Shown: one piece after another, positions 3,952-57,429 of the stretch | Numbering within the stretch: position 1 is the stretch's first letter | Layout: every line of letters begins with the position of its first letter | NCBI GenBank assembly: GCA_006226965.1 | Contig: SBGQ01000018.1 | Span: 605 to 64,604, forward strand | Origin: a bacterium | GTDB lineage: Bacteria; Bacteroidota; Rhodothermia; Balneolales; M1805 | Direction: 5' to 3' | DNA: 64,000 bases | Translations under genes and position numbers: made by a program | Notes under the pieces: model-generated | What the model was told of the DNA's origin: nothing | Seen by the model: only the letters and a program-made list of their open reading frames with translations | Databases searched by the model: none

Positions 3952-4638
3952 ATGCTTGTAAAAAAAATACAATTAACACCACCGGAGTCACCTGTTACTT
4001 TACCCGGAAAGATTACATCCATAACCGTTCAGTCTGTAAAGAAAGACAGATGCTCAATTTTTGTTGAAGGTGAGTTTTTAATCGGTATTGAGCAAAACTT
4101 GTTATTACAGTTTGGATTCAAAAAAGGTGAAATTGTACAGCCTGAGCATTATGAAGAATTGTGGGAGATAGAACAGCAAAACAAGGTTTTCCATTGGTTG
4201 TTAAGTCGTTTAGAGACACGAGCACACGGCAAAGAAGAACTGCGTCAAAAAGCAAAACTCAAAGGTTTTCCTAATCATTGGATTGAGCCTGCCATTCAAA
4301 AAGTTGAAAAATTAAGCTTGTTGAATGATGAACAATTTGCCAGAAGTTTCTGCAATGATAAATTTCGGTTTAAAAAATGGGGCCCTGTTAAAATAAAAGT
4401 TGAATTAAAAAAGAAGGGGATTGCTGATTCCGTGATTCAAAAAGTAGTAGCTGAATTACATCGAGAACAGGATTTTAAACAAGAAATAAATGCCTTACTT
4501 GCAAAGAGAGAGCGTCATTTTAATCGAGAATCAGATATTCAAAAGAGAAAACAAAAAATGATGAGTTATTTGGCAGGTAAAGGTTATCCCATGCAAGAAA
4601 TTATGAATGTGTTAAGAAACTTAAATTCATCAAAATAA
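3952..4638 (+). CDS. recX: RecX-family regulatory protein (long form)
   Basis: 228 aa immediately downstream of recA. The helical-repeat region (EQFARSFCNDKFRFKKWGPVKIKVELKKKGI) is typical of RecX. It also has an N-terminal extension of about 80 aa. Confidence 0.7.
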   Translation: MLVKKIQLTPPESPVTLPGKITSITVQSVKKDRCSIFVEGEFLIGIEQNLLLQFGFKKGEIVQPEHYEELWEIEQQNKVFHWLLSRLETRAHGKEELRQKAKLKGFPNHWIEPAIQKVEKLSLLNDEQFARSFCNDKFRFKKWGPVKIKVELKKKGIADSVIQKVVAELHREQDFKQEINALLAKRERHFNRESDIQKRKQKMMSYLAGKGYPMQEIMNVLRNLNSSK

Positions 4639-19133: not shown

Positions 19134-19976
19134 CTATAAATGTTCTTCAATTTCGGTAATTAGGTTTTCAAAACCACGATGAAAAGCTTTTAAATGATGT
19201 TCTTTTTCTAAATAAAGCTCATCATGATAGGTTTGAAATTCAGCTTTTATGTCAGCAGTTAAATATTCACCTTTTTCCATCACGCATTGCTCAAGCAATA
19301 AACCCACATTTACAAGGTCGTGCCAATCACCTAAAATCTCAGTAATCGGAACACACCATTTGGGATGGATTAACAATCGGTCTTTATAATCTTCTTTGCG
19401 AATAAATCGAAGGGTGTAATACAGCATTTTCAACAATCGACGAATCTCATGATAGGTCTCGTCGCTTACATATTTTGTTATAAGAGCGCGAGAAACAGTT
19501 GAAATGATTTCGTGAGAATACTGATTGATGAGCTCCATCACAATTTTATTCTTTTTGTGCTCATCAAGTGACTTATACGCTTTTTTTAGAGCTTTTTTAT
19601 CCGGTGATTCAAACGTTTTGAGAGCTTCAAAAACTCGGTGATGATGAATTTCTTTTTGTTCGTTAAGATAATTCAGAATAAAAGGAGTGCTAAGGGGAAA
19701 CGACTCTTGTTTCCTTATGAAAAATTCTTCGAGAACACACAAATCTCGAAACGAACCGCTTCGCTCATGTAAGTCTTTGTAGGGTTTCCATAACTTTTTT
19801 GAGTTAATTTCATCCGGAGAAAGCCATTCCATCAAGTGAAAAGCCGTTCGTTGACGTTTTAAAATCAGACGAAGTTTATGCACCCAATCTGAAGTAATTT
19901 CGACAGGTACGGCTTCAGTATGTTTATTAAAAGCACGAACTTGTTTATTGATAAACGGGCGAAGAATAGCTTTCAT
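19134..19976 (-). CDS. CHAD domain-containing protein
   Basis: 280 aa, all-helical and His-rich. VHKLRLILKRQRTAFHLM, HEIRRLLKMLYYTLRFI and ILGDWHDLVNV resemble the conserved CHAD blocks. Confidence 0.55.
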   Translation of the reverse strand: MKAILRPFINKQVRAFNKHTEAVPVEITSDWVHKLRLILKRQRTAFHLMEWLSPDEINSKKLWKPYKDLHERSGSFRDLCVLEEFFIRKQESFPLSTPFILNYLNEQKEIHHHRVFEALKTFESPDKKALKKAYKSLDEHKKNKIVMELINQYSHEIISTVSRALITKYVSDETYHEIRRLLKMLYYTLRFIRKEDYKDRLLIHPKWCVPITEILGDWHDLVNVGLLLEQCVMEKGEYLTADIKAEFQTYHDELYLEKEHHLKAFHRGFENLITEIEEHL

Positions 19977-19990
19977 CCGAATGACCCCAA

Positions 19991-21898
19991 TTACAATTTA
20001 ATTTTTGATTTAATCAGGTCTTTGGCTTTGCCTGTAGTCTGTTTAATCAATTCGTCTTTTTTGGCTTCGAGTTCTTTTTTCTTCGCATCAAAAGCAGCTA
20101 ATTGCTCATTTACTTTGGATTCAATGGCTTTCTTTTGAGCTTCCAACTTTTGTTTCTGTTCGTCAACTAGTTTGTTGAGTTCCTGTTTTTTAGCGTTTAC
20201 TTCCGCGTCAACTTTAGCCTGAATTTGTTTTTTTACTTTGTTCACTTCTTCGTTGGCAACGGCTTTAATTTGTCTGGAAACCTGATCGTCAATGTCTGAG
20301 TCAATGGCGATTTTTAAACCTTTTGCATTCGAAGCGACTTTTGCTGTCACATCAAAAGAATTAATCTTATCCATGATATTTCGGAATGTTTTTTCTGATT
20401 TTCCGGATGCCGCTTTATCAAATTTGAAATCAACTTCAGTGTTTTTCATCGAAATTAAAGCAGTTGGAGCGCCACTTAAAACGGTTAAATCAGCGGTAAT
20501 TGCAGCATTACCTTTAGTAAATCCATTAGGAAGAGAACCGCCTCCGCCCAAAGCAACCGTTCTTAGACTCATTTTTGGCATGGTGAAAACGAATTGCTCT
20601 TTTGTTTTTTCACCCAAATAGTTGAACTCTCCGGTAAGATTTAAAGATTCACCTGAATTGTTCGTTCCTGAAAAAGCTAGGGTTGTAGGACGTTTAATCA
20701 GTTTTTGATTGTCGATAATGTCTTTGATTTCACCTTTAAGCTGAATCGCGTTCGGAGTTGTAAGGTTTACATCAACCTGTTTAATCCAAAAGTTAGGATT
20801 GGCTTCTCGCAACGGAAAACGTATATCCTGACCTTTTAAACGCTGAGGTTCTTCAACTTTTTCTTGTTCTTCTGATTTGAAGTAAGCTAGGTATTCGCGT
20901 CCGGTTTCAGCATAACCCAAATATTCGTTTATGGATTGCATCAACTCTTTACCAAGAAGCAATTCACCGATTTTTTGTGAATCAAAATCCGGGAGTTTTG
21001 CTGCTTCACGAGCTTTTTTGTAATCATCCTGAATCCAATCATCCACTTTTCCTGTGCCGGAGGTTACCAATTTTGTTCCGTTTGATAATTCCGTTTTTGC
21101 CGTTTCCATGCGAGTTTTTAGCTCTTTGGTATCTTTAGCCATCGTTTCAAGCGATTTGATGGCGTTTTCAGCCGCCTTAACATCCTTAATCTCTTTAATG
21201 TTGATAGCTTTTAATTTGGTATCCAAATCAGAAACAGTTTGGTTGATTTTTAAATCATCAACGGATTTGGTGATACCATCAACTTGGGCAGAAATCGCTT
21301 GTTTTAACGAATCGATTTTATGGGGTGATTCAAGTTTTAACATCGCCATCAAACTATCTGTATTAACAGAAGTGTTTGCTAACTGGAATAAGGGTTGATT
21401 TTTGATTTCGTTGCTAAGTGCCGCTTTTGCTGCTTTTGTGCGCTCTTTGGCTTCTTTCGAAAGTTCTGATTCAGTGCTGTCAACAGGTTCAACGGCAGGG
21501 ATCCACTCTTTTGGTAACTCACCGGATTTGCTTCGAGCAGTGCCCGTTAAAATATCTGAAATTTGGACTTTATCGATGATTACTTTCTTTTGAAGCAACT
21601 TCCAGGCTTGGATGGAAACACCTGTTTTCCCGGTTTCAAATTTGTTTTTCATCAAATCTTCTGAATCTGCAACCTGTAGTTTTTGCCAACCCATCGTTCC
21701 GCCAAAAAATGAAATAGTAAACCCGTCGAATTCAACCATTGCACCATTTTGCACACTAAGAGTTTGCTCTAATTGCGATTCAATAAAATCGTCGGTAAGA
21801 AAATAGATTCCGGCAGCGGTTAGTAAACCCAGAATCAAGAATAAAATTAGTCCGCCTTTTCTGAATAGTTTCATTGTATTATCCTCCGAATTTTTCAT
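19991..21898 (-). CDS. Uncharacterized envelope protein, TIGR03545-like (N-terminal TM anchor, C-terminal Lys/Glu-rich coiled coil)
   Basis: 635 aa. It has a single N-terminal TM segment (LILFLILGLLTAAGIYFL), a beta-rich middle and a coiled-coil tail of about 90 aa. It is paired with, and overlaps by 20 nt, a DUF2062-like gene, as described for the TIGR03545/TIGR03546 pair. This assignment is from memory, not a search. Confidence 0.45.
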   Translation of the reverse strand: MKNSEDNTMKLFRKGGLILFLILGLLTAAGIYFLTDDFIESQLEQTLSVQNGAMVEFDGFTISFFGGTMGWQKLQVADSEDLMKNKFETGKTGVSIQAWKLLQKKVIIDKVQISDILTGTARSKSGELPKEWIPAVEPVDSTESELSKEAKERTKAAKAALSNEIKNQPLFQLANTSVNTDSLMAMLKLESPHKIDSLKQAISAQVDGITKSVDDLKINQTVSDLDTKLKAINIKEIKDVKAAENAIKSLETMAKDTKELKTRMETAKTELSNGTKLVTSGTGKVDDWIQDDYKKAREAAKLPDFDSQKIGELLLGKELMQSINEYLGYAETGREYLAYFKSEEQEKVEEPQRLKGQDIRFPLREANPNFWIKQVDVNLTTPNAIQLKGEIKDIIDNQKLIKRPTTLAFSGTNNSGESLNLTGEFNYLGEKTKEQFVFTMPKMSLRTVALGGGGSLPNGFTKGNAAITADLTVLSGAPTALISMKNTEVDFKFDKAASGKSEKTFRNIMDKINSFDVTAKVASNAKGLKIAIDSDIDDQVSRQIKAVANEEVNKVKKQIQAKVDAEVNAKKQELNKLVDEQKQKLEAQKKAIESKVNEQLAAFDAKKKELEAKKDELIKQTTGKAKDLIKSKIKL

Positions 21899-22391
21899 AT
21901 AACATGAATAGTTTGGAGCCTTTCATCAGTTTGCTCACTTTGGAATTTTGGAACCATTTTAAAGCATGAGTTCTGTACTTTTTCACCAGAAAAAGGAAAA
22001 TAGGAAACATAATAGGCGCAGCTAAAACAGAAGCTACAAAACTTCCCATCAAAACCGTGTTATTGAAATTTGTTAAAACCATTGCAGAATTATACCAATC
22101 GGTATAAATGGCTCGCATGCTTTCAAGATTAAGCAAATAAAACCCGAAATCGTGAAAAACGCCGTCGAGTGCAAAGCCGGCCATTGCAAAAATACCCATG
22201 CCAAGTATTGCCATCGAAAAGTTGACATTAAACAGAATGAGAACAATAATGAGTATTACATGGTGAAAACTAAACCATGGGGTGAGCCCCATAATCATTC
22301 CGATTGTTAAACCGCCAGCCAATTGAGCCGGACTGTGTTTTTCGGAATTCAGCAGTTTTATGAGTTTAAAGATGATATCGATTCCAAACAT
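21879..22391 (-). CDS. Small polytopic membrane protein, DUF2062/TIGR03546-like
   Basis: 170 aa. SPAQLAGGLTIGMIMGLTPWFSFHHVILIIVLILFNVN resembles the DUF2062 core. It has four predicted TM segments. Confidence 0.5.
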   Translation of the reverse strand: MFGIDIIFKLIKLLNSEKHSPAQLAGGLTIGMIMGLTPWFSFHHVILIIVLILFNVNFSMAILGMGIFAMAGFALDGVFHDFGFYLLNLESMRAIYTDWYNSAMVLTNFNNTVLMGSFVASVLAAPIMFPIFLFLVKKYRTHALKWFQNSKVSKLMKGSKLFMLYEKFGG

Positions 22392-22764
22392 AGGTCTCCT
22401 TTATGTTGATTCAGCAAAATACAAAAGCCGCTAAAATCTTTTTTGAAAAAAGGCGAAGGAAGATGTTAAGGTTTCAGGTTTTGGGAGTATTCAGTTTAAG
22501 TATTCAGCATTCAGGTTTTAGGTTTCGACATCAAAAATTTGTTATCAACTATCAACAAATTCTAAACTCCTATCCGAAGCGCAACGCAGAAGCGTGAAAC
22601 GATACGATAGTACTTCGAAGCAAAATCCAAGTTAACATTTATCAAACCCTCTTCAGTTCACGTTTCGTGAAGTTCTCGGGTTTTCAGGCGTAAGAGGGAT
22701 TTTTCGTTTCGAGATCTAACATCAACAATCAAAAATCAGCCATCATCCATCAAAAATTTCTACA

Positions 22765-22841
22765 ATCCGACATCCGACATCCGACATCCGACATCCGACA
22801 TCCGACATCCGACATCCGACATCTTACATCCGACATCCGAC
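22765..22841. repeat. Heptanucleotide microsatellite (ATCCGAC)x11, with one variant unit
   Basis: Eleven head-to-tail 7-bp units, counted directly. The ninth unit (22821-22827) reads ATCTTAC. Confidence 0.97.
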
Positions 22842-22879
22842 AAAAAAAAGGGGTGCGTCCTACTACAGATCACAACCCC
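22842..22879 (-). terminator. Possible terminator of the 1796-aa gene
   Basis: On the minus strand, GGGGT...ACCCC forms a 5-bp stem with a large loop, followed by eight T (22849-22842). The stem is weak. Confidence 0.4.
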
Positions 22880-22904
22880 GCTATCTTGATTACCCCGTTT
22901 AAGG

Positions 22905-25900
22905 TTATTTCAGTAAAGTCATTTTCTTCACATCAACTACTTGGTTATCTATGGTGAGTCGATACAGATAAACACCACTCGCAAGTTGCATGCCATTAAA
23001 ATTAGTTGTGTGATATCCTGCGTCAAATGCACTATTTACAAGGGTTGAAATTTTTCTGCCAAGTATATCGAACACTTCGAGGCGAACATGAGCCGGTTTG
23101 GTGACGGCAAAACGCAACACGGTTGTTGGGTTAAACGGATTCGGGAAGTTATCAAATAAGAAAGGTTGTTCCGGAAGAACGTGTTTTTCAACCAATTCTC
23201 TGGTTCCGATATAGGCTTTAAATACTCTTTCTTTAGAAGCATCCAACCATTTTAATGAATCGCCCGGCTCTAATACTTTGTACATATCGTTACTAACTAA
23301 AGCAAGAACATGGGTGTCATTAAACATATTTCCGCTCCAGCTGATTTTGCGATGGCCTTTTGGAATCACAATTTCTCTGTAAGAATTAACAAAGTCTTCA
23401 TCTGTAAAAGCAAGCGGCTGTGCATCTGTTGTAAGTGCCACACCATCGCCTTTAATGTAAGCCGGCAGCGTTTTGATATCAGGCGCTGATGGTAAAAGCG
23501 GTTCATCAAATTCATCAAACTCAGAAATCGCTGAACTTCTGTTCACTAAACGTAGCCATTCATTATCAATAATAATGTCTGATAATAGTTGAAACTCATC
23601 TGGAAGTGCTTGTTTTAATGGAACATCTGAATTCATTGAAGTTGGCGTAACCGTGTCGAGACTCAAGGTTACAGTTGCGTTACTACTCGAATAAACTAAA
23701 TAACCACCCCAAGGTTTGAGCTTTTCAGTAGTTTGAACCGTTGTCCAGTTTTGTGAAACAGCAGAGAACTTCCACATTTTAACTGTACTTAAATTCGCAG
23801 ACCAACTCACTTCTGTTTCGTAAGGGTTTGCAATGAATCTATAGTTATTAAAATTGATAGAGAAGGTTCGATTTGTCATTCGACTACCTGCACCTGTTTG
23901 CAGTTCAAATTTTTGATCTAAACCAAGAGTTTTGAACCACAACGATTTACCTGTTCCGAATACCGGTCCAGCTTCCTCAGAAACATCATAATATTCACCG
24001 CTAGTATTCATATCGAATAACCTGTAATCTTTTCCCGGGATGATATCAGCAAATAAATCTGCCGGTGCGGTATTAATACCTGTTCCGGGAATGGATAACA
24101 ACGTCCAGTTTTTTACAATAATTCCATCTGAATAAGCAGATACTGCGGAATTTGAACTTTGTGTAGAAAACGCTTGGGTTTTTACTGTTACGTTTATGGT
24201 AAGTACGGAAGATTCTGTTGTCGCATCTTGAGCTTTAACGGTTACAGAAGTTTCGCCTTCACTAAATGCTGTAATTGTAAGCGAGTTATTTACGGAGTTA
24301 GCGGCAATGTTTGCTACAGAAGGGTTATTGGATGAGGTTTGGTAAGTCATAGATTCACCATTATCATCTGTAAATAAACTATTCAGCGTATAAATAGCAG
24401 AATTTCCGCCTAAAACAAGAACCACATCAGCAATATTTCCGGTTATTCTCGGGCGTGCATTCACATAAATGTTAAACGCCGAAGAATTTGTTTTTCCGCC
24501 CGGATCTTGAGCGGTTACCGTAAGTGTAGTTGAACCGGCAGCCGTTCCTGTAATCAAAATTTTGTTATTTCCAGAGTTATAAGAACCTCCGGCAATTGAC
24601 GGATTATCAGCAGTGATGGAATAGGTGAGCACATCGCCGTCAGGGTCGCTGAAGTAAACGCTTGGGTCAAGCTGAATGGCAGCATCACCGAGATTAATCG
24701 ATTGATTCGGTATTACAGATAGAACACTTGGTGCACGATTTTCACGAGGTCCTACAGTAACTACAAACTCGTTTTCTGCTTCGGCTTTGCCGTCGGATGC
24801 GGTTACTTTTACAGTAATACTTCCCAATGCAATTGGTTTAATTATTAAAGTTGAACCGTTGGCAATAGAGATTTCTGCAACAGATGGGTTCGGATTGTTA
24901 GTTGAATAACTCAACACATCACCGGCATCAGGGTCATCAAAAACAGTAGTAAGATTGATGGTTGTTGAATCGTCAGCCACACGAGTTTCAACAGTTGCTA
25001 TTGGTGATGCAACTCGAGGAGTGTAATTATCCGGTGCGTTTACATAAACGATGAAGTTTGTACTCACTACACCGCCACGGTCGTCATCTGCAGTTACGGT
25101 GATGGTTGTGTTGCCGATGGCATTGGGAGTGATACTAAATAATTTATTTACCGCATCTGATACACTAGCAACAGATGGTTTACTTGATAAGACCGTGTAA
25201 GACAAGTCGTTACCATCAGCATCAGAAAAAGTTGAAGTTAAATCGATGTTTTGAGGTGAATCCGTTAATCTTAAATCTAAGTCATCTAAAACATTGGCAA
25301 CCACAGGAGCTGAGTTTGTAGAAACACTGATGTTTTTCAGAATTTGGATTTTTGGCTGACTGGAAGGGTAAATCATATAAACCACATCCAAATCACCGTC
25401 TTTATCAACATCAATCAACTTGGGGAATGATTTTGTTGTTGAGTTATTTGATAAATCGGATTTTTTTGAGAATAGATTATCTGTGTAAGTGTAGTAATTT
25501 AAGTATGTGCTGGTACTTGATACTACATCTAATCTTCCGTTATTATCAAGGTCACCAACATCTAAACCTCCAACTTCAGAACCGCTCGGTACACTAAATG
25601 TGATACCGTTAGAAAGATACCCCGGGTCTGCAGTTATATCATTGAAAAAGTAACCAACTGTATTAAAGCTATAACCAATTACATCAATTTTATTATTGCG
25701 AGTAAAATCATCAAAAATGAATGTATGATAATATCCTGGTCTGTAAAACGTGTTCTCATGTTGGAAGAAATCAGAAATCGAATTATTGGTACCAACATAT
25801 AATTTGCCGTTATTATTTGTAGAGCTGGCTACTACCATATCTAGTAATCCATCTCCTGTTACATCTACAGGGGTTACATCATAAGCCTGCTGTGTGGAAG

Positions 25901-28295
25901 TAACCGCATTTGAAATATTAAACGTACCTGCGTTGTTTTTAATAATCATGATAGTTGATGTAGTTGTATAACTTGGTACTACAATTTCAGGGTAACCATC
26001 GTAATCAAAGTCGGCAAATTTAACATTGTCAACAAATGCGTAAACCGTTGTTTCTAATACATCTTCCAAGCTAAAGGTACCTGCTCCGTTATTCTTGTAT
26101 AGATAGATTTGAGCGGTTTTGTTTGGGCTGGTATCATAAATATTGGTTGCATACACATGGAAAATTCCAATATCTGTGCTTCCGTCTTTATTGTAATCAC
26201 CAAGAAATAAACTAATTCTATGAAATGCTCCTGATGAGGAATTGGTTATTCCTCGAAAACGAACCATATCTGGATAATTTCCATTGCCATCATTGAAATA
26301 CACAAAAACGGAATCGACGGTGTTTCCGTAGTTCATTAAAGCAACTAAGTCAATATCATTATCTCCGTCTAAATCGCCTGCTTGAAAAGACTTCCCATAA
26401 TAAGTTGTGTTTGCTGTGTTTAGAGTGAGTTCAGCGGCCGTTTCAAAAGTGGTTCCACCGTTTGAAACCTGTACTCGATAATGTGTTGAGTACGGAAGAA
26501 CGGTAACTCCCTCTTGAGAAATGTAAGTCGAGTTAATACTTAGAGTCACTTTTTCATTGGCTAAAAGTGATTTTATCGGTTTTATAACCAATACACTGTC
26601 GTTCGATTGAGCAGTTATTTGAAGAGAAAGATTACCTCTCAAATTCGAAACCAGACTCACATTGGTAGAATTAAATGAGTTGTTTACAAACTTTCCGCTA
26701 AAGGAGACAGTGATTTGATCCGTTGCACGCATTTTATTTTCGTAGGGACTCGGGCTGGTTCCTATAACATGTAAGGGCGTTACAACATCAATATCGGTCA
26801 AATTTAATTGTGGAAGATTCGCAGAAATTGATTGCAAGCCTGTTGAGCCGTATGGTGTAATTGCTGCCCCAAGTTTTGTTGTTGAACTCGGTATTAATTT
26901 AGCCTCATAATTCCCGGCTTCTAAAGCTTGAAACGTAAATAAGCCATAATCTTCTGTGGTATCATTTTTTACCCAAACATCATCTTTATACAAACTAATA
27001 ATTCTGTTGGGTTCAAAATTTCCATCTTTCCATACTTGCCCTTGAAAATCTCGTTGATTAGCTATTGTTATGGGCGCAGGAGTCGGCACACCCCACTGCT
27101 CGGTAGCGTCTTTTGTTCGAACATAAATCGCGTGGGAGCCGATTGATTGAGTGAGTGTAACCAATGCTCTTGCATCAACCGTAGTTGAATCATAAAATCC
27201 GGTTAAGGTAACAGGCTGTAAATCCATTCCTTGTCCATCAGATGGGTGTTTTGCCCCGGAAAAGAAATATTCCACATCGGTTATATTTTGTGATTCTGTT
27301 AGAGCTTTAGGAATAAATACTAAACGTGATGTATAATTTCCCCAAGTTCCGCTTTCATCCTTCAAACGAAAGTAGAATCGATTAAATCCCGTTTGAAAAC
27401 CATCAAGTGAAATATCTAATTGTTCTGTTAATGTTGCCGAAGGTTCAACATCTATTACATTTCCTGCACCAAAAGCCGGTCTGTTTCCAGAGAAGTATTC
27501 AAGTTGGTTGATTTTTGAAAGTACACGTTCTTCCGGTTGATAGACTGAAAACCCTCTTGGAATTCCCCATGTATTATCAGAATCTTTAAATCTGAAAAAC
27601 AGGCGATGGAATCCCGCTTCACTTGGAGCATCAACTTGCGTATCTGTAATTGTTGCTAATCCGGTTTCCATGGAACCCGCCGCTTCTACCGCTATTCCGG
27701 TTCCCGGTTGACCCAAATCATCATAAAAATATTCTGCACCTGAAATCGGGGAGATGGTTTTTGTATCTGGTACATAAAACAATCTGGATGCATAATTTCC
27801 CCAAGTACCAAAGTTATCCTGAACCCGCACATAAGCTTTATGAAAACCTGGAGTTAAATTAGTGCTTTCTAAATCTATTTCTTTTTCAATTGAAACTACT
27901 TCGCCAGGATTTACACTTGCTGATATACCTGCACCGAATTCCACATTTCCGTTAAAAAAGATTTCGGCATTTGAAACCGTTTTTTCCGGAATCTCCGCCG
28001 GTTTATAGAACACTCTGCGTAATGGAATGCCCCACAATCCATCGGCATCTTTAAATCGAATATATAAAGCATGAAAACCAACACTTAACTGATCAACATC
28101 AATTTCAACATTATCTATAAATGCTTTTTCAATGGATGTATTTACCACAACGGATATACCGTTGCCGGAACCCGGGTCGGTATCAAAAAAATACTCCGCT
28201 GCGGTTATGCTAACAGGCGGGGCAAGTTCCTGTGCTGTAAGCCTTGCTGTTAGTAGCAAGAAGCAAGCCGTTAGAATTATCTTGAAATTTTTCAT
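22905..28295 (-). CDS. Giant secreted surface protein: 5 novel N-terminal repeats, a CarboxypepD_reg-like domain, 7 FG-GAP/VCBS-like repeats, 4 cadherin-like Ig modules and a T9SS C-terminal sorting domain
   Basis: 1796 aa with signal peptide MKNFKIILTACFLLLTARLTAQ. The seven D-x-D/N-x-D-G-x-x-D loops include GDLDGDNDIDLV and IDVDKDGDLDVV. Four repeats of about 100 aa carry F(S/T/D)D(A/P/D)DG.(D/V/S)L(S/T)Y. The tail is FPNPFNPTTVLRF...GVYLYRL...KMTLLK. Confidence 0.85.
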   Translation of the reverse strand: MKNFKIILTACFLLLTARLTAQELAPPVSITAAEYFFDTDPGSGNGISVVVNTSIEKAFIDNVEIDVDQLSVGFHALYIRFKDADGLWGIPLRRVFYKPAEIPEKTVSNAEIFFNGNVEFGAGISASVNPGEVVSIEKEIDLESTNLTPGFHKAYVRVQDNFGTWGNYASRLFYVPDTKTISPISGAEYFYDDLGQPGTGIAVEAAGSMETGLATITDTQVDAPSEAGFHRLFFRFKDSDNTWGIPRGFSVYQPEERVLSKINQLEYFSGNRPAFGAGNVIDVEPSATLTEQLDISLDGFQTGFNRFYFRLKDESGTWGNYTSRLVFIPKALTESQNITDVEYFFSGAKHPSDGQGMDLQPVTLTGFYDSTTVDARALVTLTQSIGSHAIYVRTKDATEQWGVPTPAPITIANQRDFQGQVWKDGNFEPNRIISLYKDDVWVKNDTTEDYGLFTFQALEAGNYEAKLIPSSTTKLGAAITPYGSTGLQSISANLPQLNLTDIDVVTPLHVIGTSPSPYENKMRATDQITVSFSGKFVNNSFNSTNVSLVSNLRGNLSLQITAQSNDSVLVIKPIKSLLANEKVTLSINSTYISQEGVTVLPYSTHYRVQVSNGGTTFETAAELTLNTANTTYYGKSFQAGDLDGDNDIDLVALMNYGNTVDSVFVYFNDGNGNYPDMVRFRGITNSSSGAFHRISLFLGDYNKDGSTDIGIFHVYATNIYDTSPNKTAQIYLYKNNGAGTFSLEDVLETTVYAFVDNVKFADFDYDGYPEIVVPSYTTTSTIMIIKNNAGTFNISNAVTSTQQAYDVTPVDVTGDGLLDMVVASSTNNNGKLYVGTNNSISDFFQHENTFYRPGYYHTFIFDDFTRNNKIDVIGYSFNTVGYFFNDITADPGYLSNGITFSVPSGSEVGGLDVGDLDNNGRLDVVSSTSTYLNYYTYTDNLFSKKSDLSNNSTTKSFPKLIDVDKDGDLDVVYMIYPSSQPKIQILKNISVSTNSAPVVANVLDDLDLRLTDSPQNIDLTSTFSDADGNDLSYTVLSSKPSVASVSDAVNKLFSITPNAIGNTTITVTADDDRGGVVSTNFIVYVNAPDNYTPRVASPIATVETRVADDSTTINLTTVFDDPDAGDVLSYSTNNPNPSVAEISIANGSTLIIKPIALGSITVKVTASDGKAEAENEFVVTVGPRENRAPSVLSVIPNQSINLGDAAIQLDPSVYFSDPDGDVLTYSITADNPSIAGGSYNSGNNKILITGTAAGSTTLTVTAQDPGGKTNSSAFNIYVNARPRITGNIADVVLVLGGNSAIYTLNSLFTDDNGESMTYQTSSNNPSVANIAANSVNNSLTITAFSEGETSVTVKAQDATTESSVLTINVTVKTQAFSTQSSNSAVSAYSDGIIVKNWTLLSIPGTGINTAPADLFADIIPGKDYRLFDMNTSGEYYDVSEEAGPVFGTGKSLWFKTLGLDQKFELQTGAGSRMTNRTFSINFNNYRFIANPYETEVSWSANLSTVKMWKFSAVSQNWTTVQTTEKLKPWGGYLVYSSSNATVTLSLDTVTPTSMNSDVPLKQALPDEFQLLSDIIIDNEWLRLVNRSSAISEFDEFDEPLLPSAPDIKTLPAYIKGDGVALTTDAQPLAFTDEDFVNSYREIVIPKGHRKISWSGNMFNDTHVLALVSNDMYKVLEPGDSLKWLDASKERVFKAYIGTRELVEKHVLPEQPFLFDNFPNPFNPTTVLRFAVTKPAHVRLEVFDILGRKISTLVNSAFDAGYHTTNFNGMQLASGVYLYRLTIDNQVVDVKKMTLLK

Positions 28296-54055: not shown

Positions 54056-54682
54056 TCATTTGGTAATAAATGAACGGCCAATTTCTTTTCTGATGCGGCT
54101 TAAGCTCTGAGTTGTAATTCCTAAATAGGATGCAATGTGTTTTTGATGTACGGATTGAATTAAATCCGGTCGGTTTTTGATGAGGTCTAAATAGCGCTCT
54201 TTGGCTGTTTTAAGTAATAAATCAATTTGTTGTTGCTGCTTTTCTGCAAAAGAATGTTCTGCCGAAAGTAAAAAGAGCTGTTTCCCTATAGGTGTTTCTT
54301 TCAGTAGTTCGATGTTTTTTGCTGATATCCTGAATAAAGTGGACGGTTCAAGTGTCATGGTTTCAATTAGGGTTGCTTTTCCGGTAATCAAAGACATATA
54401 ATCCCCGAAGAAGTCATTTTTCGTCATGATATCAAGACAAATAAAATTAGGGTCTTTCCAAATGAATAACCCTGCACTTCCTTCAACTATAAAATAACCG
54501 TGTGTCTCAATAGTGTTATAGTGTTTTATTATTTCATTCTTTTTGTAGTGTACATAGTCGCCAAGTTCCTCGAAGTGTTTCCATACTTCAAGTTCCGTTT
54601 TGCTGTACTTCTCAAAGGCTTCTTGCAATTGGGTTTCAATCATATCACAGTGGGTTTGTCTGGGAAAAATAGAACCATTCAA
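54056..54682 (-). CDS. Crp/Fnr family transcriptional regulator
   Basis: It has a cNMP-binding-like beta-roll (FFGDYMSL) and a C-terminal HTH (HIASYLGITTQSLSRIRKE). The start may instead be Met13 (54646). Confidence 0.7.
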   Translation of the reverse strand: MNGSIFPRQTHCDMIETQLQEAFEKYSKTELEVWKHFEELGDYVHYKKNEIIKHYNTIETHGYFIVEGSAGLFIWKDPNFICLDIMTKNDFFGDYMSLITGKATLIETMTLEPSTLFRISAKNIELLKETPIGKQLFLLSAEHSFAEKQQQQIDLLLKTAKERYLDLIKNRPDLIQSVHQKHIASYLGITTQSLSRIRKEIGRSFITK

Positions 54683-54692
54683 CTAAATGAGT

Positions 54693-54712
54693 TTAAATGT
54701 CAACATTTAAAT
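54693..54712. promoter_or_regulatory. Perfect 20-bp palindrome TTTAAATGT-CA-ACATTTAAA (candidate operator)
   Basis: Read directly. It lies 11 to 47 nt upstream of the Crp/Fnr gene start, depending on the start chosen, within the divergent intergenic region. Confidence 0.3.
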
Positions 54713-54912
54713 TATAATAAATAGAGAGTTTAAAGGGTGTAACAAAACAAAAATTTGGATATGGTATTATACTAAATATGTTGCCATTGCGTATTCGATA
54801 TGATTACTTAGGCCTGCTAATTATTATCAGCCGCAAAAAGGGTTTATTTTTTTGAATCTTAGTGCCTGAAAAATCGTAGCTTTTCAGCTGAATAAATGCT
54901 TGGAGTTAGAAC

Positions 54913-57429
54913 TTGAAACAACGCTCATTTAATGCTTGGTACTACTTTGGTATAGTTGGTCTATTGGTGTTTGTACTTACTCGCCCGATTATCGACTTTA
55001 ATGCCAATAGCCCCGTTAGCGATACTCCACGCGTAATTGAAGATAAAGTTCGTTTTATTGCGGAAGAACTTGGAATAAACACCGATACCTTAGCAATTTT
55101 TGTACAGAGAGAACAGTCGGTTACTTTGTATAAAAATCTGAAAGATTCATTGAGTTATTTGCCTTCTCCTGCAACCTTGCAAAGTAAGGATATTCCCGTA
55201 ACCTATTGGGATATAAAATTGTACAGAAAAAATGTAAGGATGCCGTTTAACCCGGGAGAGAATTTAGATGAACTCTCCATATTTAATTTGAGCTTACAGG
55301 ATGACGGCAAAATTTTTCGCATAAAAAGTAATCAAAGGTATGCTGATGCCAGTTTTTATGAAGGAGATTCATTGCCGGAAATAAGTGAATCCATTGTTCA
55401 AAATGTGCTGGGATTCAGTTTGTCTAATTATACTTTAGATGCTCGAATAGACACCACAATTTTGACTGAAAGTGTTGAACAGGTTAGGCAATTAAATACG
55501 ACATCAAGCAAAATAAAAGAAGAACGTTTCAAATTTACATGGCGAAAGGTTGATTTATCACAAGCCGGTCCTTTAAAAATTTATGTTGAATTAAAGCCGG
55601 TTGTGCGAACAAATGAGTTTGGCACAATTAGACAGGGCGTTTCCATTCAATCTGTATCAACGGTTTATATTAATGAAATCATTGAGCAGCAACCATCTAA
55701 AGAGAACCCGATGGTTGAAGCATTCTATTTCTTCATTTCATTGTTGAGTTTAGTCGGATTGGTTGTAGCTGTTTCTGTTCGCCAAATTTTAAAGAATATG
55801 GTTGAATGGAAACGCGGATTCATCATGCTGTTTTTAGCAATTGTAATAATTGGCAGTTGGAGAACCTTTTATTATTTCCAATCTCAGTTTTGGATATTAA
55901 ACGGACCCGCATCAATAACATATTTATTCAATACACTTCTTTATGCATTATTGCTTGGAGTCTTTACGGCATTAGCATACATGGGATGGGATTCATTAGC
56001 TCGCCAACAAAAACATAAACAACTCCCGATTTTTGATGCAATTTGGCAAGGGAAACTGTTTTTTAAAGAAACAGGTATTGCCATTATTTATGGTTATACC
56101 ATTGCCGGTGTATTAGTGGGAGTGTTAGCGGTTGGGTTGTTGGGCTTAAATCTGAGCTTTCATCAATATAACAGCCAATTTGGTTATACAGAAGCGACGA
56201 GTGTTTTACCTGTTCTTACCGTACCACTGAACGCACTGGGCGTTAGCGTTTTTGGTTTAATTGCTCATTTTGGCTTAACAAGTGCTTTTTTTCAGGATGT
56301 ATTTAAAAAGCAATGGTTAAATGTGGCCTTTACATTTGTTTTTGCCTCGTTTTTCTTGAGTGGTGTTGGTCGCTTTTTTGGAACTGAAGGTTCTTTCTTC
56401 AATGATATGTTGCTCTACCTGTTGCTGATTATTCCCATTTACATGGCGTACAAGCAATTAGGTTTTTTTAGTGTGACTATAGCTTGGGGCGTTTTTGCCA
56501 TGATTGTGTTTATGAGTCCGTTTTTTAACACGAGTTCATCCAGCATTATTATTCAGTTTTTGATACTCACGGGAATTTTATTGCTTCCGCTCATTTTTGG
56601 GTTTATTGCCGCTAATTTTGGGGATTCTTTAGCAGATGAACGGGGTTACATTCCTGAGTATGAAGAAAAAATATCTCGTCAACTTCGTTTTGAAAAAGAG
56701 ATTGAAATTGCCAGAGAATCTCAATTTGAATTGCTTCCTGTAAATACCCCTGAATTGCCGGAAGCCATGATTTTTGGTTTTTTTATACCGTCATTCGAAG
56801 TAGGGGGTGATTATTATGATTATTTCCTCAAATATGATGAAGCCAAAAAGCCAAAGTCTTTAGCTATTACAGTTGTAGATGTTTCCGGAAAGGCTATGAA
56901 AGCCGCCATGCATGCCGTTCACACAAGCGGACTCATTTTATCCCGTTTTCCTACGGATACTCCTGAGCAAGTGCTTTCGATGATAAACCCGTTTATTCAT
57001 CAAAAAACAGATAAAAAAACGTTTATTACCGGAATAGCAGCTGAATATCAATTCGATTCAAAAATACTGAGTTTGGCAAATGCCGGACATTGCTTGCCTG
57101 TTTTAAAGCGTAATGGTAAAGCAACATTTATTGATACACCGGCTCCAAAGTTTCCGCTCGGTATCATTAAACAGGTTGATTACAAATCCGTTGATATTCA
57201 ATTACAAGCCGGAGATGTAGTTTTATTTTATTCTGATGGACTCCCGGAAGCACAGAACACTAAAGGGAAACGATTTGGATTCGATACGGTACTCAGCTTA
57301 ATGGAAGAAATTGATACAGAAACAGAAACCTCGGCTGGAATATGTCAGTACATTAAGCGAAAAGTTCAGCAGTTTAGTGCGTATCAAATGGCCGACGATA
57401 CTACTATCGTAGCTCTCAAAATTGTTTAA
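54913..57429 (+). CDS. Multi-pass membrane PP2C/SpoIIE-family protein phosphatase
   Basis: 838 aa with a TTG start. It has a periplasmic N-terminal region, about 10 TM segments and a C-terminal PP2C domain (GGDYYDY, VVDVSGKAM, FYSDGLPEA, DDTTIVALK). Confidence 0.85.
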   Translation: MKQRSFNAWYYFGIVGLLVFVLTRPIIDFNANSPVSDTPRVIEDKVRFIAEELGINTDTLAIFVQREQSVTLYKNLKDSLSYLPSPATLQSKDIPVTYWDIKLYRKNVRMPFNPGENLDELSIFNLSLQDDGKIFRIKSNQRYADASFYEGDSLPEISESIVQNVLGFSLSNYTLDARIDTTILTESVEQVRQLNTTSSKIKEERFKFTWRKVDLSQAGPLKIYVELKPVVRTNEFGTIRQGVSIQSVSTVYINEIIEQQPSKENPMVEAFYFFISLLSLVGLVVAVSVRQILKNMVEWKRGFIMLFLAIVIIGSWRTFYYFQSQFWILNGPASITYLFNTLLYALLLGVFTALAYMGWDSLARQQKHKQLPIFDAIWQGKLFFKETGIAIIYGYTIAGVLVGVLAVGLLGLNLSFHQYNSQFGYTEATSVLPVLTVPLNALGVSVFGLIAHFGLTSAFFQDVFKKQWLNVAFTFVFASFFLSGVGRFFGTEGSFFNDMLLYLLLIIPIYMAYKQLGFFSVTIAWGVFAMIVFMSPFFNTSSSSIIIQFLILTGILLLPLIFGFIAANFGDSLADERGYIPEYEEKISRQLRFEKEIEIARESQFELLPVNTPELPEAMIFGFFIPSFEVGGDYYDYFLKYDEAKKPKSLAITVVDVSGKAMKAAMHAVHTSGLILSRFPTDTPEQVLSMINPFIHQKTDKKTFITGIAAEYQFDSKILSLANAGHCLPVLKRNGKATFIDTPAPKFPLGIIKQVDYKSVDIQLQAGDVVLFYSDGLPEAQNTKGKRFGFDTVLSLMEEIDTETETSAGICQYIKRKVQQFSAYQMADDTTIVALKIV

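Follow-up and report, generated by a model that had tools for sequence, protein, structure and literature searches.

An ATCCGAC heptamer array between a giant secreted-protein gene and a TIGR03546 operon, probably an ordinary intergenic microsatellite

Introduction

The locus studied here raises the question of whether a tandem array of 7-bp units, lying between the gene of a giant secreted protein and the next operon on the same strand, controls its neighbours or is an ordinary product of DNA replication. According to Rehm et al. 2015 (PMC4692102), heptameric SSRs are over-represented among the long SSRs of many bacteria; they fall into the class of long SSRs with units of 5-11 bp that the same paper takes from Mrazek et al. 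2007. The best-understood functional heptamer SSR is the (ATCTTTC)n repeat of hmw1A in Haemophilus influenzae. The ATCCGAC unit of the present array was not found in the searchable literature. An earlier note on this DNA proposed that changes in unit number alter the spacing of regulatory elements or the efficiency of a terminator. In the current study, we consider the array within the whole 64-kb stretch of DNA that was analysed (hereafter the window), in related loci and in other genomes, and compare it with the known heptamer systems.

Results

Sequence and composition of the array

The array has the consensus ATCCGAC, which becomes GTCGGAT when read in the direction of the neighbouring genes, and was reported by TRF with 11.1 copies of period 7, 94% matches, 0 indels and a score of 142. 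Read directly, it consists of eight ATCCGAC units (22765-22820), the variant ATCTTAC as the ninth unit (22821-22827) and two further ATCCGAC units (22828-22841), while the A at 22842 is the first base of an A8 run adjoining the array. Both readings bear out the earlier description of eleven 7-bp units, ten of them perfect and one ATCTTAC. No other tandem repeat of the window comes near it in strength, the other TRF rows reaching at most 2.4 copies. A two-unit pattern with up to 2 mismatches gave 10 matches in the window, every one within the array, against an expectation of 0.20 from dinucleotide-preserving shuffles; none of 100 shuffles reached 10, and a chance origin of the array is excluded. 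With the same pattern, no second ATCCGAC array was found in the 64-kb window, which is part of the genome. The GC content of the unit is 0.54, compared to 0.377 for the genome.

No ORF of at least 60 aa crosses the array, and the only ones that do are repeat-encoded ORFs of 21-37 aa, in line with the earlier view that the array is intergenic and non-coding and that a change in copy number cannot shift a reading frame. Pfam, NCBIfam and Rfam gave no signal in the array. Its DNA folds at -0.5 and -5.6 kcal/mol on the two strands, no better than shuffles, which rules out a hairpin, cruciform or G4 potential. A structured RNA in the spacer was likewise rejected, the RNA fold of the whole spacer having a z of 0.10, and Rfam gave nothing at E values up to 1 over the spacer and nothing at gathering thresholds in the whole window apart from a distant tRNA-Met. 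Considering the lack of an Rfam match, and that neither the spacer RNA nor the array DNA folds better than shuffles, the array is structurally inert.

Table 1. Coordinates of the array, the other elements of its spacer and the flanking genes in the window
Feature	Position	Strand	Basis
Downstream operon TIGR03546-TIGR03545-CHAD	19134..22391	-	NCBIfam, Pfam
Putative promoter-proximal region of the TIGR03546 operon	22392..22450	-	alignment with L118, L119 and L120; motif search
Older heptamer remnants	22466..22529		register print; alignment with the end of the L118 (ATACTGA)x7.4 array
Paralogous copy of the left flank of the array	22530..22577		76% identity, repeat search
Mid-spacer hairpin	22644..22701		DNA fold z = -2.7 (+ strand), -2.4 (minus strand); inverted repeat
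Decayed period-7 block adjoining the array	22714..22757		lag-7 identity 0.75
Live array (ATCCGAC)x11.1	22765..22842		TRF, direct reading, shuffles, DNA folds
Intrinsic terminator of the 1796-aa gene	22842..22879	-	hairpin 22850-22879 and U8 22842-22849
Conserved 29-nt element CCTTAAACGGGGTAATCAAGATAGCGGGG	22876..22904	-	between stop codon and terminator hairpin
1796-aa secreted protein gene (upstream)	22905..28295	-	Pfam, NCBIfam

Flanking genes and terminator

The upstream gene encodes a 1796-aa protein of FG-GAP and Ig-like repeats with a T9SS C-terminal sorting domain (FG-GAP_3, 9e-24, Big_2 and Por_Secre_tail in Pfam; TIGR04183, 5e-8, in NCBIfam), for which no other record was found. The array lies 62 nt from its stop codon and 373 nt from the TIGR03546 start codon, close to the 375 nt to the next minus-strand operon that had been estimated before. 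This operon comprises TIGR03546 (21879-22391; 8e-38 in NCBIfam), TIGR03545 (19991-21898; 9e-75 in NCBIfam) and a CHAD-domain protein (19134-19976), with DUF2062 and CHAD as Pfam matches. The order giant gene, TIGR03546, TIGR03545 is kept in two related loci, L119 and L120, and the closest relative, L118 (CAZIQX010000300.1, from MAG GCA_964541325.1, labelled Chitinophagales), has 86% aa identity. This label and the T9SS domains of the window indicate a host in the Bacteroidota.

Read along the minus strand, the stop codon is followed by a conserved stretch of 29 nt, a hairpin (22879-22850), U8 (22849-22842) and then (GTCGGAT)n. A simple terminator scan missed the hairpin. The RNA hairpin folds at -16.4 kcal/mol, and its stem has been preserved in both L119 and L120, where one base pair has changed in a compensatory manner and several G-C pairs have become G-U; the fold and the conservation of the stem in two related loci show that the intrinsic terminator is genuine. 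The array was correctly placed by the earlier note directly after the terminator of the 1796-aa gene, hairpin and U8 ending at 22842. Since it begins only after the complete hairpin and U8, the sequence just past the terminator is unchanged by copy number, which argues against the proposed effect of copy change on terminator efficiency.

The 29-nt element CCTTAAACGGGGTAATCAAGATAGCGGGG occurs once in the window. It is 100% identical to positions 3845-3873 of L120 and about 86% identical in L119 (about 985-1012), although the giant proteins of the window and of L119 and L120 are just 47-50% identical. A small RNA derived from the 3' UTR might have its seed in this element, or a protein might bind to it. 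In L120 the 29 nt come after a relic copy of the giant-gene 3' end, about 380 nt past the present terminator, and TIGR03546 begins 95 nt further on. In the stretch 3472-3845 of L120, a second terminator of great strength (z = -4.2) stands directly after the present giant-gene stop codon, with about 300 nt of unassigned DNA between it and the relic 3' end, and this arrangement suggests that the C-terminal part of the giant gene in L120 was replaced by recombination.

Probable position of the promoter and proposed regulatory effects

The last ~60 nt before the ATG of the operon can be aligned among the window, L118, L119 and L120, and all four share an RBS of the AAGGAG type and, some 30-45 nt ahead of the ATG, a box rich in T. 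The box of the window, TATTTTG (22415-22421), is identical in L118. Based on this alignment, the region probably holds the promoter of the TIGR03546 operon. A search of the operon strand from the gene start to 23100 gave no canonical TAnnTTTG box, the sole relaxed match lying at 22556-22564, and no sigma-70-like or TAnnTTTG box was found upstream of the array on the minus strand. A sigma-54 promoter was also considered and rejected, since the distance between its GG and GC exceeds the required one by 2 nt and L118 lacks the motif. The two candidate boxes are located on the gene side of the array, at a distance of 200-340 nt from it, and L119 packs terminator, promoter and leader into 150 nt.

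The unit number could act as a phase-variable switch or rheostat, altering spacing, helical phasing or terminator efficiency and so tuning the TIGR03546 operon or the giant adhesin-like gene. The array would be suited to this in being long and pure, with a unit that is not a multiple of three, and is therefore expected to be mutable; the product of the upstream gene is large, secreted and of the surface type, a class of proteins that is often phase-varied, and the strongly conserved CCTTAAACGGGGTAATCAAGATAGCGGGG lies across the array from the promoter, so that adding or removing a single 7-bp unit would turn it by about 240 degrees relative to whatever lies downstream. The anatomy of the locus speaks against it. 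The array is neither within an ORF nor within the terminator, and any promoter-like box is 200-340 nt away; with both boxes lying that far downstream on the operon strand, the array is not enclosed by any pair of elements known to interact. Moreover, L119 and L120 have both the operon and CCTTAAACGGGGTAATCAAGATAGCGGGG, with about 90 nt from the element to the start codon, and no ATCCGAC array in their homologous spacers (150 nt and 530 nt, respectively). The placements known for contingency SSRs, i.e., in an ORF, between promoter hexamers or in a transcribed leader, were not found, with the promoter positioned as inferred above. Considering that the array lies outside the terminator and the promoter-proximal region, and that relatives run the operon without it, the proposed regulatory effects have no anatomical basis, and the claim that copy change alters regulatory spacing does not agree with the distance of the boxes or with the spacers of L119 and L120. 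The arrays of other genomes, described below, also have no consistent placement, and we regard a regulatory role of this kind as improbable.

The spacer as a mosaic of live and decayed arrays

The spacer measures 513 nt, the second longest of the 43 gaps of the window, the median of which is 72. A lag-identity scan confined the period-7 signal of the 64-kb window to this spacer, where the only segment above threshold besides the live array is the adjoining decayed block, which reads CTAACAT, CAACAAT, CAAAAAT, CAGCCAT, CATCCAT, CAAAAAT, i.e., ATCAnnn units, and is out of phase with the live array. The longest gap of the window (54644-55239, 596 nt, between divergent genes) has no period-7 signal. 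Closer to the operon, the older remnants are GTATTCA units (ATACTGA on the gene strand) nested in AGGTTTY units (RAAACCT on the gene strand), and the paralogous copy of the left flank contains (TATCAAC)x2 and has a single unexpanded ATCCGA unit as its last element.

The mid-spacer hairpin has outer arms AAACCCTCTT/AAGAGGGATT and the inner part TTCACG-TTT-CGTGAA, followed by a T-rich run on the + strand. Its folding is significant on both strands. This segment has no similarity to any locus or to the rest of the window, and a MITE reading was rejected, the segment being single-copy and the flanking direct repeat 41 nt long. A + strand ORF of 64 aa (22403-22597) was also rejected as a gene; it has no family match and overlaps the repeat remnants.

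Turnover of arrays among relatives

At the end of the L118 contig stands a live (ATACTGA)x7.4 array, some 130 nt upstream of the start codon of TIGR03546. This array is followed by an 8-mer array, (ACCTTTAC)x4.8, and the two together (1-96) occupy about 90-185 nt before that codon. The L118 (ATACTGA)x7.4 array aligns with the remnant CTGAATGCTGAATA..CTTAAAC of the window at an equal distance from the start codon, and the window keeps two to three degenerate units at that position. At this orthologous position the array is live in L118 and decayed in the window, and neither L119 nor L120 has the ATCCGAC array in its spacer. This pattern of live, decayed and absent arrays implies that they are born, amplified and lost on the time scale of close species, and the turnover of length and sequence between close relatives that is typical of intergenic heptamer SSRs was found at this locus. 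More distant homologues (L114-L117, L127 and L128) have other upstream genes or lie on short contigs, and have no arrays.

The MAG of the closest relative has a (GTCGGAT) array at another locus (L033, CAZIQX010000134.1, 1658-1699), where at least 6 units stand at the contig end and 5 nt separate them from the start codon that follows, which belongs to the gene of an RlmF-type RNA methyltransferase (Pfam Methyltransf_10, 2.8e-110); no orthologue of this methyltransferase was found in the window. To judge from these two genomes, the ATCCGAC unit is common to the lineage, at different loci.

ATCCGAC and other period-7 arrays across genomes

A scan of species-representative genomes for at least three perfect ATCCGAC units gave at least 112 loci (L002-L113). 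Among the matches listed, Bacteroidota account for at least ~39 and Planctomycetota for at least ~18, with further ones in Acidobacteriota, Proteobacteria, Verrucomicrobiota, Actinomycetota and other phyla; the arrays have 3-64 units, and 22 of the 116 listed have at least 11. The opinion that perfect heptamer arrays of such length are rare in bacteria is contradicted by these numbers, as it is by the over-representation of heptameric SSRs reported for many bacteria (PMC4692102). Because ATCCGAC has no stop codon in any frame, an array was classed as coding only if the open frame extends at least 60 codons on both sides, and with this rule 35 of 40 arrays of low-GC loci were non-coding among the matches listed. 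In co-directional spacers the two orientations occur 8 and 9 times among the matches listed, where all spacer types are represented, and arrays adjoin both 5' and 3' gene ends, with distances to the start codon from ~0 to more than 800 nt.

Many of the arrays are flanked by other heptamer arrays, either unrelated or differing by one mismatch, ATCCGAA being the commonest (8 arrays among the matches listed). The 739 kb of the listed loci contain a further 73 arrays of period 7, in which over 50 different units are represented, compared to 7 arrays of period 6, 12 of period 8 and 33 of period 14. The large number of unrelated units in neighbouring arrays indicates that the common factor is the period of 7 and not the sequence. 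Compound heptamer clusters were seen across Bacteroidota, Planctomycetota, Acidobacteriota and Proteobacteria among the matches listed. Inverted pairs, with (GATGTCG)n a few tens of nt from (ATCCGAC)n, occur at L003, L024, L037, L047 and L087, mostly Planctomycetota loci, and would form long potential stem-loops. The arrays often coincide with the end of a contig (e.g., L009, L012, L013, L046, L049, L058, L059, L096, L103 and L109), and L107 has a run of N within its array (4033-4153). ATCCGAC arrays are systematic assembly breakpoints, and for this reason true copy numbers are under-reported.

The arrays might alternatively constitute a functional dispersed family, as binding arrays or structural elements (e.g., a site for a nucleoid or insulator protein), or be the product of a dedicated sequence-specific process of amplification or transfer, and be kept in this lineage and others. 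Several observations are consistent with this: two related genomes have the unit, each at a locus of its own, it is GC-rich in an AT-rich genome, and 11 genomes supply 29 of the at least 112 loci with 2-4 loci each among the matches listed, which suggests genome-specific ATCCGAC families. Four IMG/VR viral contigs (L121-L124) have at least three perfect ATCCGAC units, slightly above the 1, 0 and 1 of three composition-matched control heptamers, counts that are too small to interpret or to carry weight, and a horizontal spread has been raised for the TAACTGA repeats by MacGregor (PMC4679880). On the other hand, the matches listed follow no rule of position or orientation and vary in copy number from 3 to 64, their neighbouring arrays share with them the period of 7 and not the unit, and the arrays decay and vanish between close relatives. 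Overall, a functional family has little likelihood, and the GC-rich unit, the recurrence within genomes and the weak viral excess leave a small probability for a sequence-specific process or function. It is quite improbable that both ideas hold together, i.e., that ATCCGAC is a sequence-specific STRR-like family, common to this lineage and to scattered ones of other phyla and bound by a protein or maintained by a dedicated process, and that the unit number sets the distance and helical phase between CCTTAAACGGGGTAATCAAGATAGCGGGG and the promoter and so tunes the operon.

Discussion

If transcripts of the giant gene read through the terminator, the array would lie in a long 5' leader of the TIGR03546 operon. 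Such a leader, arising by read-through or from an unrecognised promoter, could in principle contain the repeat as a 5'-UTR element that acts post-transcriptionally through an RNA hairpin, as in hmw. A heptamer SSR upstream of a same-strand gene is the hmw arrangement (PMC12721329), and (GUCGGAU)n RNA could pair with itself through G-U pairs. The hmw1A (ATCTTTC)n repeat, however, needs a promoter directly upstream and a complementary arm downstream, which is G-rich (PMC12721329). What lies directly upstream of the present array is a terminator, with no sigma-70-like or TAnnTTTG box there; no complementary downstream arm was found, the array pairs only with itself, and the leader as a whole folds no better than expected (z = 0.10). 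This mechanism is very improbable here.

A mis-assembly or a chimeric join at the repeat as the source of the array or of its copy number is scarcely credible: tandem repeats do break and confuse short-read assemblers, many ATCCGAC arrays of other genomes lie at contig ends and one across a scaffold gap, and in the independent Logan assembly of k-mers (SRR8389942, L001) the contig stops after 8 nt of the array, but that assembly is identical over the 373-nt flank and the junction, the order from the giant gene to TIGR03546 across the array is the same in L119 and L120, and the longest pure stretch is 56 nt, with the variant unit fixing the register. The exact number of 11 comes from one assembly. 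As this is the only assembly to span the array, active change in copy number is taken here as an assumption, slippage-driven change being the natural expectation.

In our view, the array is probably an ordinary and neutral intergenic microsatellite, made and kept pure by recent slippage in a lineage with intergenic DNA that readily breeds 7-bp arrays. Its neutrality is argued from its position and its lack of conservation, and replication slippage would be the generating process. Slipped-strand mispairing at replication has probably produced the ATCCGAC array recently and kept it pure. The DNA in which it lies may be called free, as the terminator on one side is complete and the next promoter comes only later, and here a gain or loss of 7-bp units would change only the length of a spacer with no fixed length requirement. 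The spacer has probably grown to its 513 nt, compared to 150 nt in L119, as such arrays arose again and again, were amplified, duplicated internally and decayed by mutation, and the eleven-unit array would be its youngest one, still pure. Nothing suggests that the array controls the neighbouring genes.

The array matters little alone, since an excess of 7-bp tandem repeats between bacterial genes is already known and this is a further case of it. The locus displays, within one spacer and between two close relatives, the life stages of a microsatellite, i.e., the single unit, the live array, the nested and the decayed ones. It also adds an undescribed unit, recurring across phyla, to the unexplained preference for period 7 in bacteria. 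Assemblies from short reads are interrupted by arrays of this type, which could also be used to tell strains apart.

Comparison with known systems

STRR are heptamer repeats of heterocystous cyanobacteria with unit sequences of their own. The comparison with them made in the earlier note is a fair analogy, both being tandem non-coding heptamers; as in Calothrix and Nostoc, several unit families occur per genome. The units and the phylum differ, and in the 64 kb of the window a single spacer carries arrays. An assignment to STRR in the strict sense was rejected, given the unit ATCCGAC, a host with T9SS sorting domains and a nearest relative labelled Chitinophagales.

The array shares with those of hmw1A and hmw2A a heptanucleotide SSR of at least 11 units upstream of a same-strand gene. 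It differs from them in that the directly upstream promoter, the transcribed repeats and the complementary arm cut by RNase III have no counterpart in the window. The G-quadruplex heptamers (GGGAATC/GGGGAYT), with at least 3 consecutive G in every unit, differ in another respect, ATCCGAC having no run of G or C longer than 2 on either strand.

A likeness is found in the Bacteroidetes intergenic regions in which several different heptamer direct repeats occur together, with close relatives having shorter spacers without the repeats and with contigs ending partway through them (MacGregor 2015, PMC4679880). The window likewise has a Bacteroidota-type host and a long spacer with several heptamers, with shorter spacers in relatives and contigs that end in repeats, and the array of the related genome (L033) stands a few nt before a start codon. 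The TAACTGA repeats of that study lie mostly a few nt upstream of a start codon, whereas the present array has another unit and lies 373 nt away, and because of this distance the translational role proposed for TAACTGA does not apply to it.

The heptameric SSRs of Rehm et al. differ in length and sequence among close relatives and include inverted pairs, and a footprint of polymerase slippage has been hypothesised for them (PMC4692102); the arrays of Xanthomonas (e.g., GGGAATC) lie between the same gene pairs in related species with extensive variation (PMC4692102). The present array resembles them in its tandem 7-bp unit, in spacers between the same genes that differ in length and sequence, in the inverted pairs of some genomes, in having no link to particular gene functions and in a period of 7 that is favoured over neighbouring periods. 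It differs from them in a unit that lacks G-runs and any quadruplex or hairpin potential, and in its host, a Bacteroidota-like MAG of an uncultured bacterium. The best-supported assignment of the array is as a further instance of this known over-represented class of bacterial heptameric SSRs.
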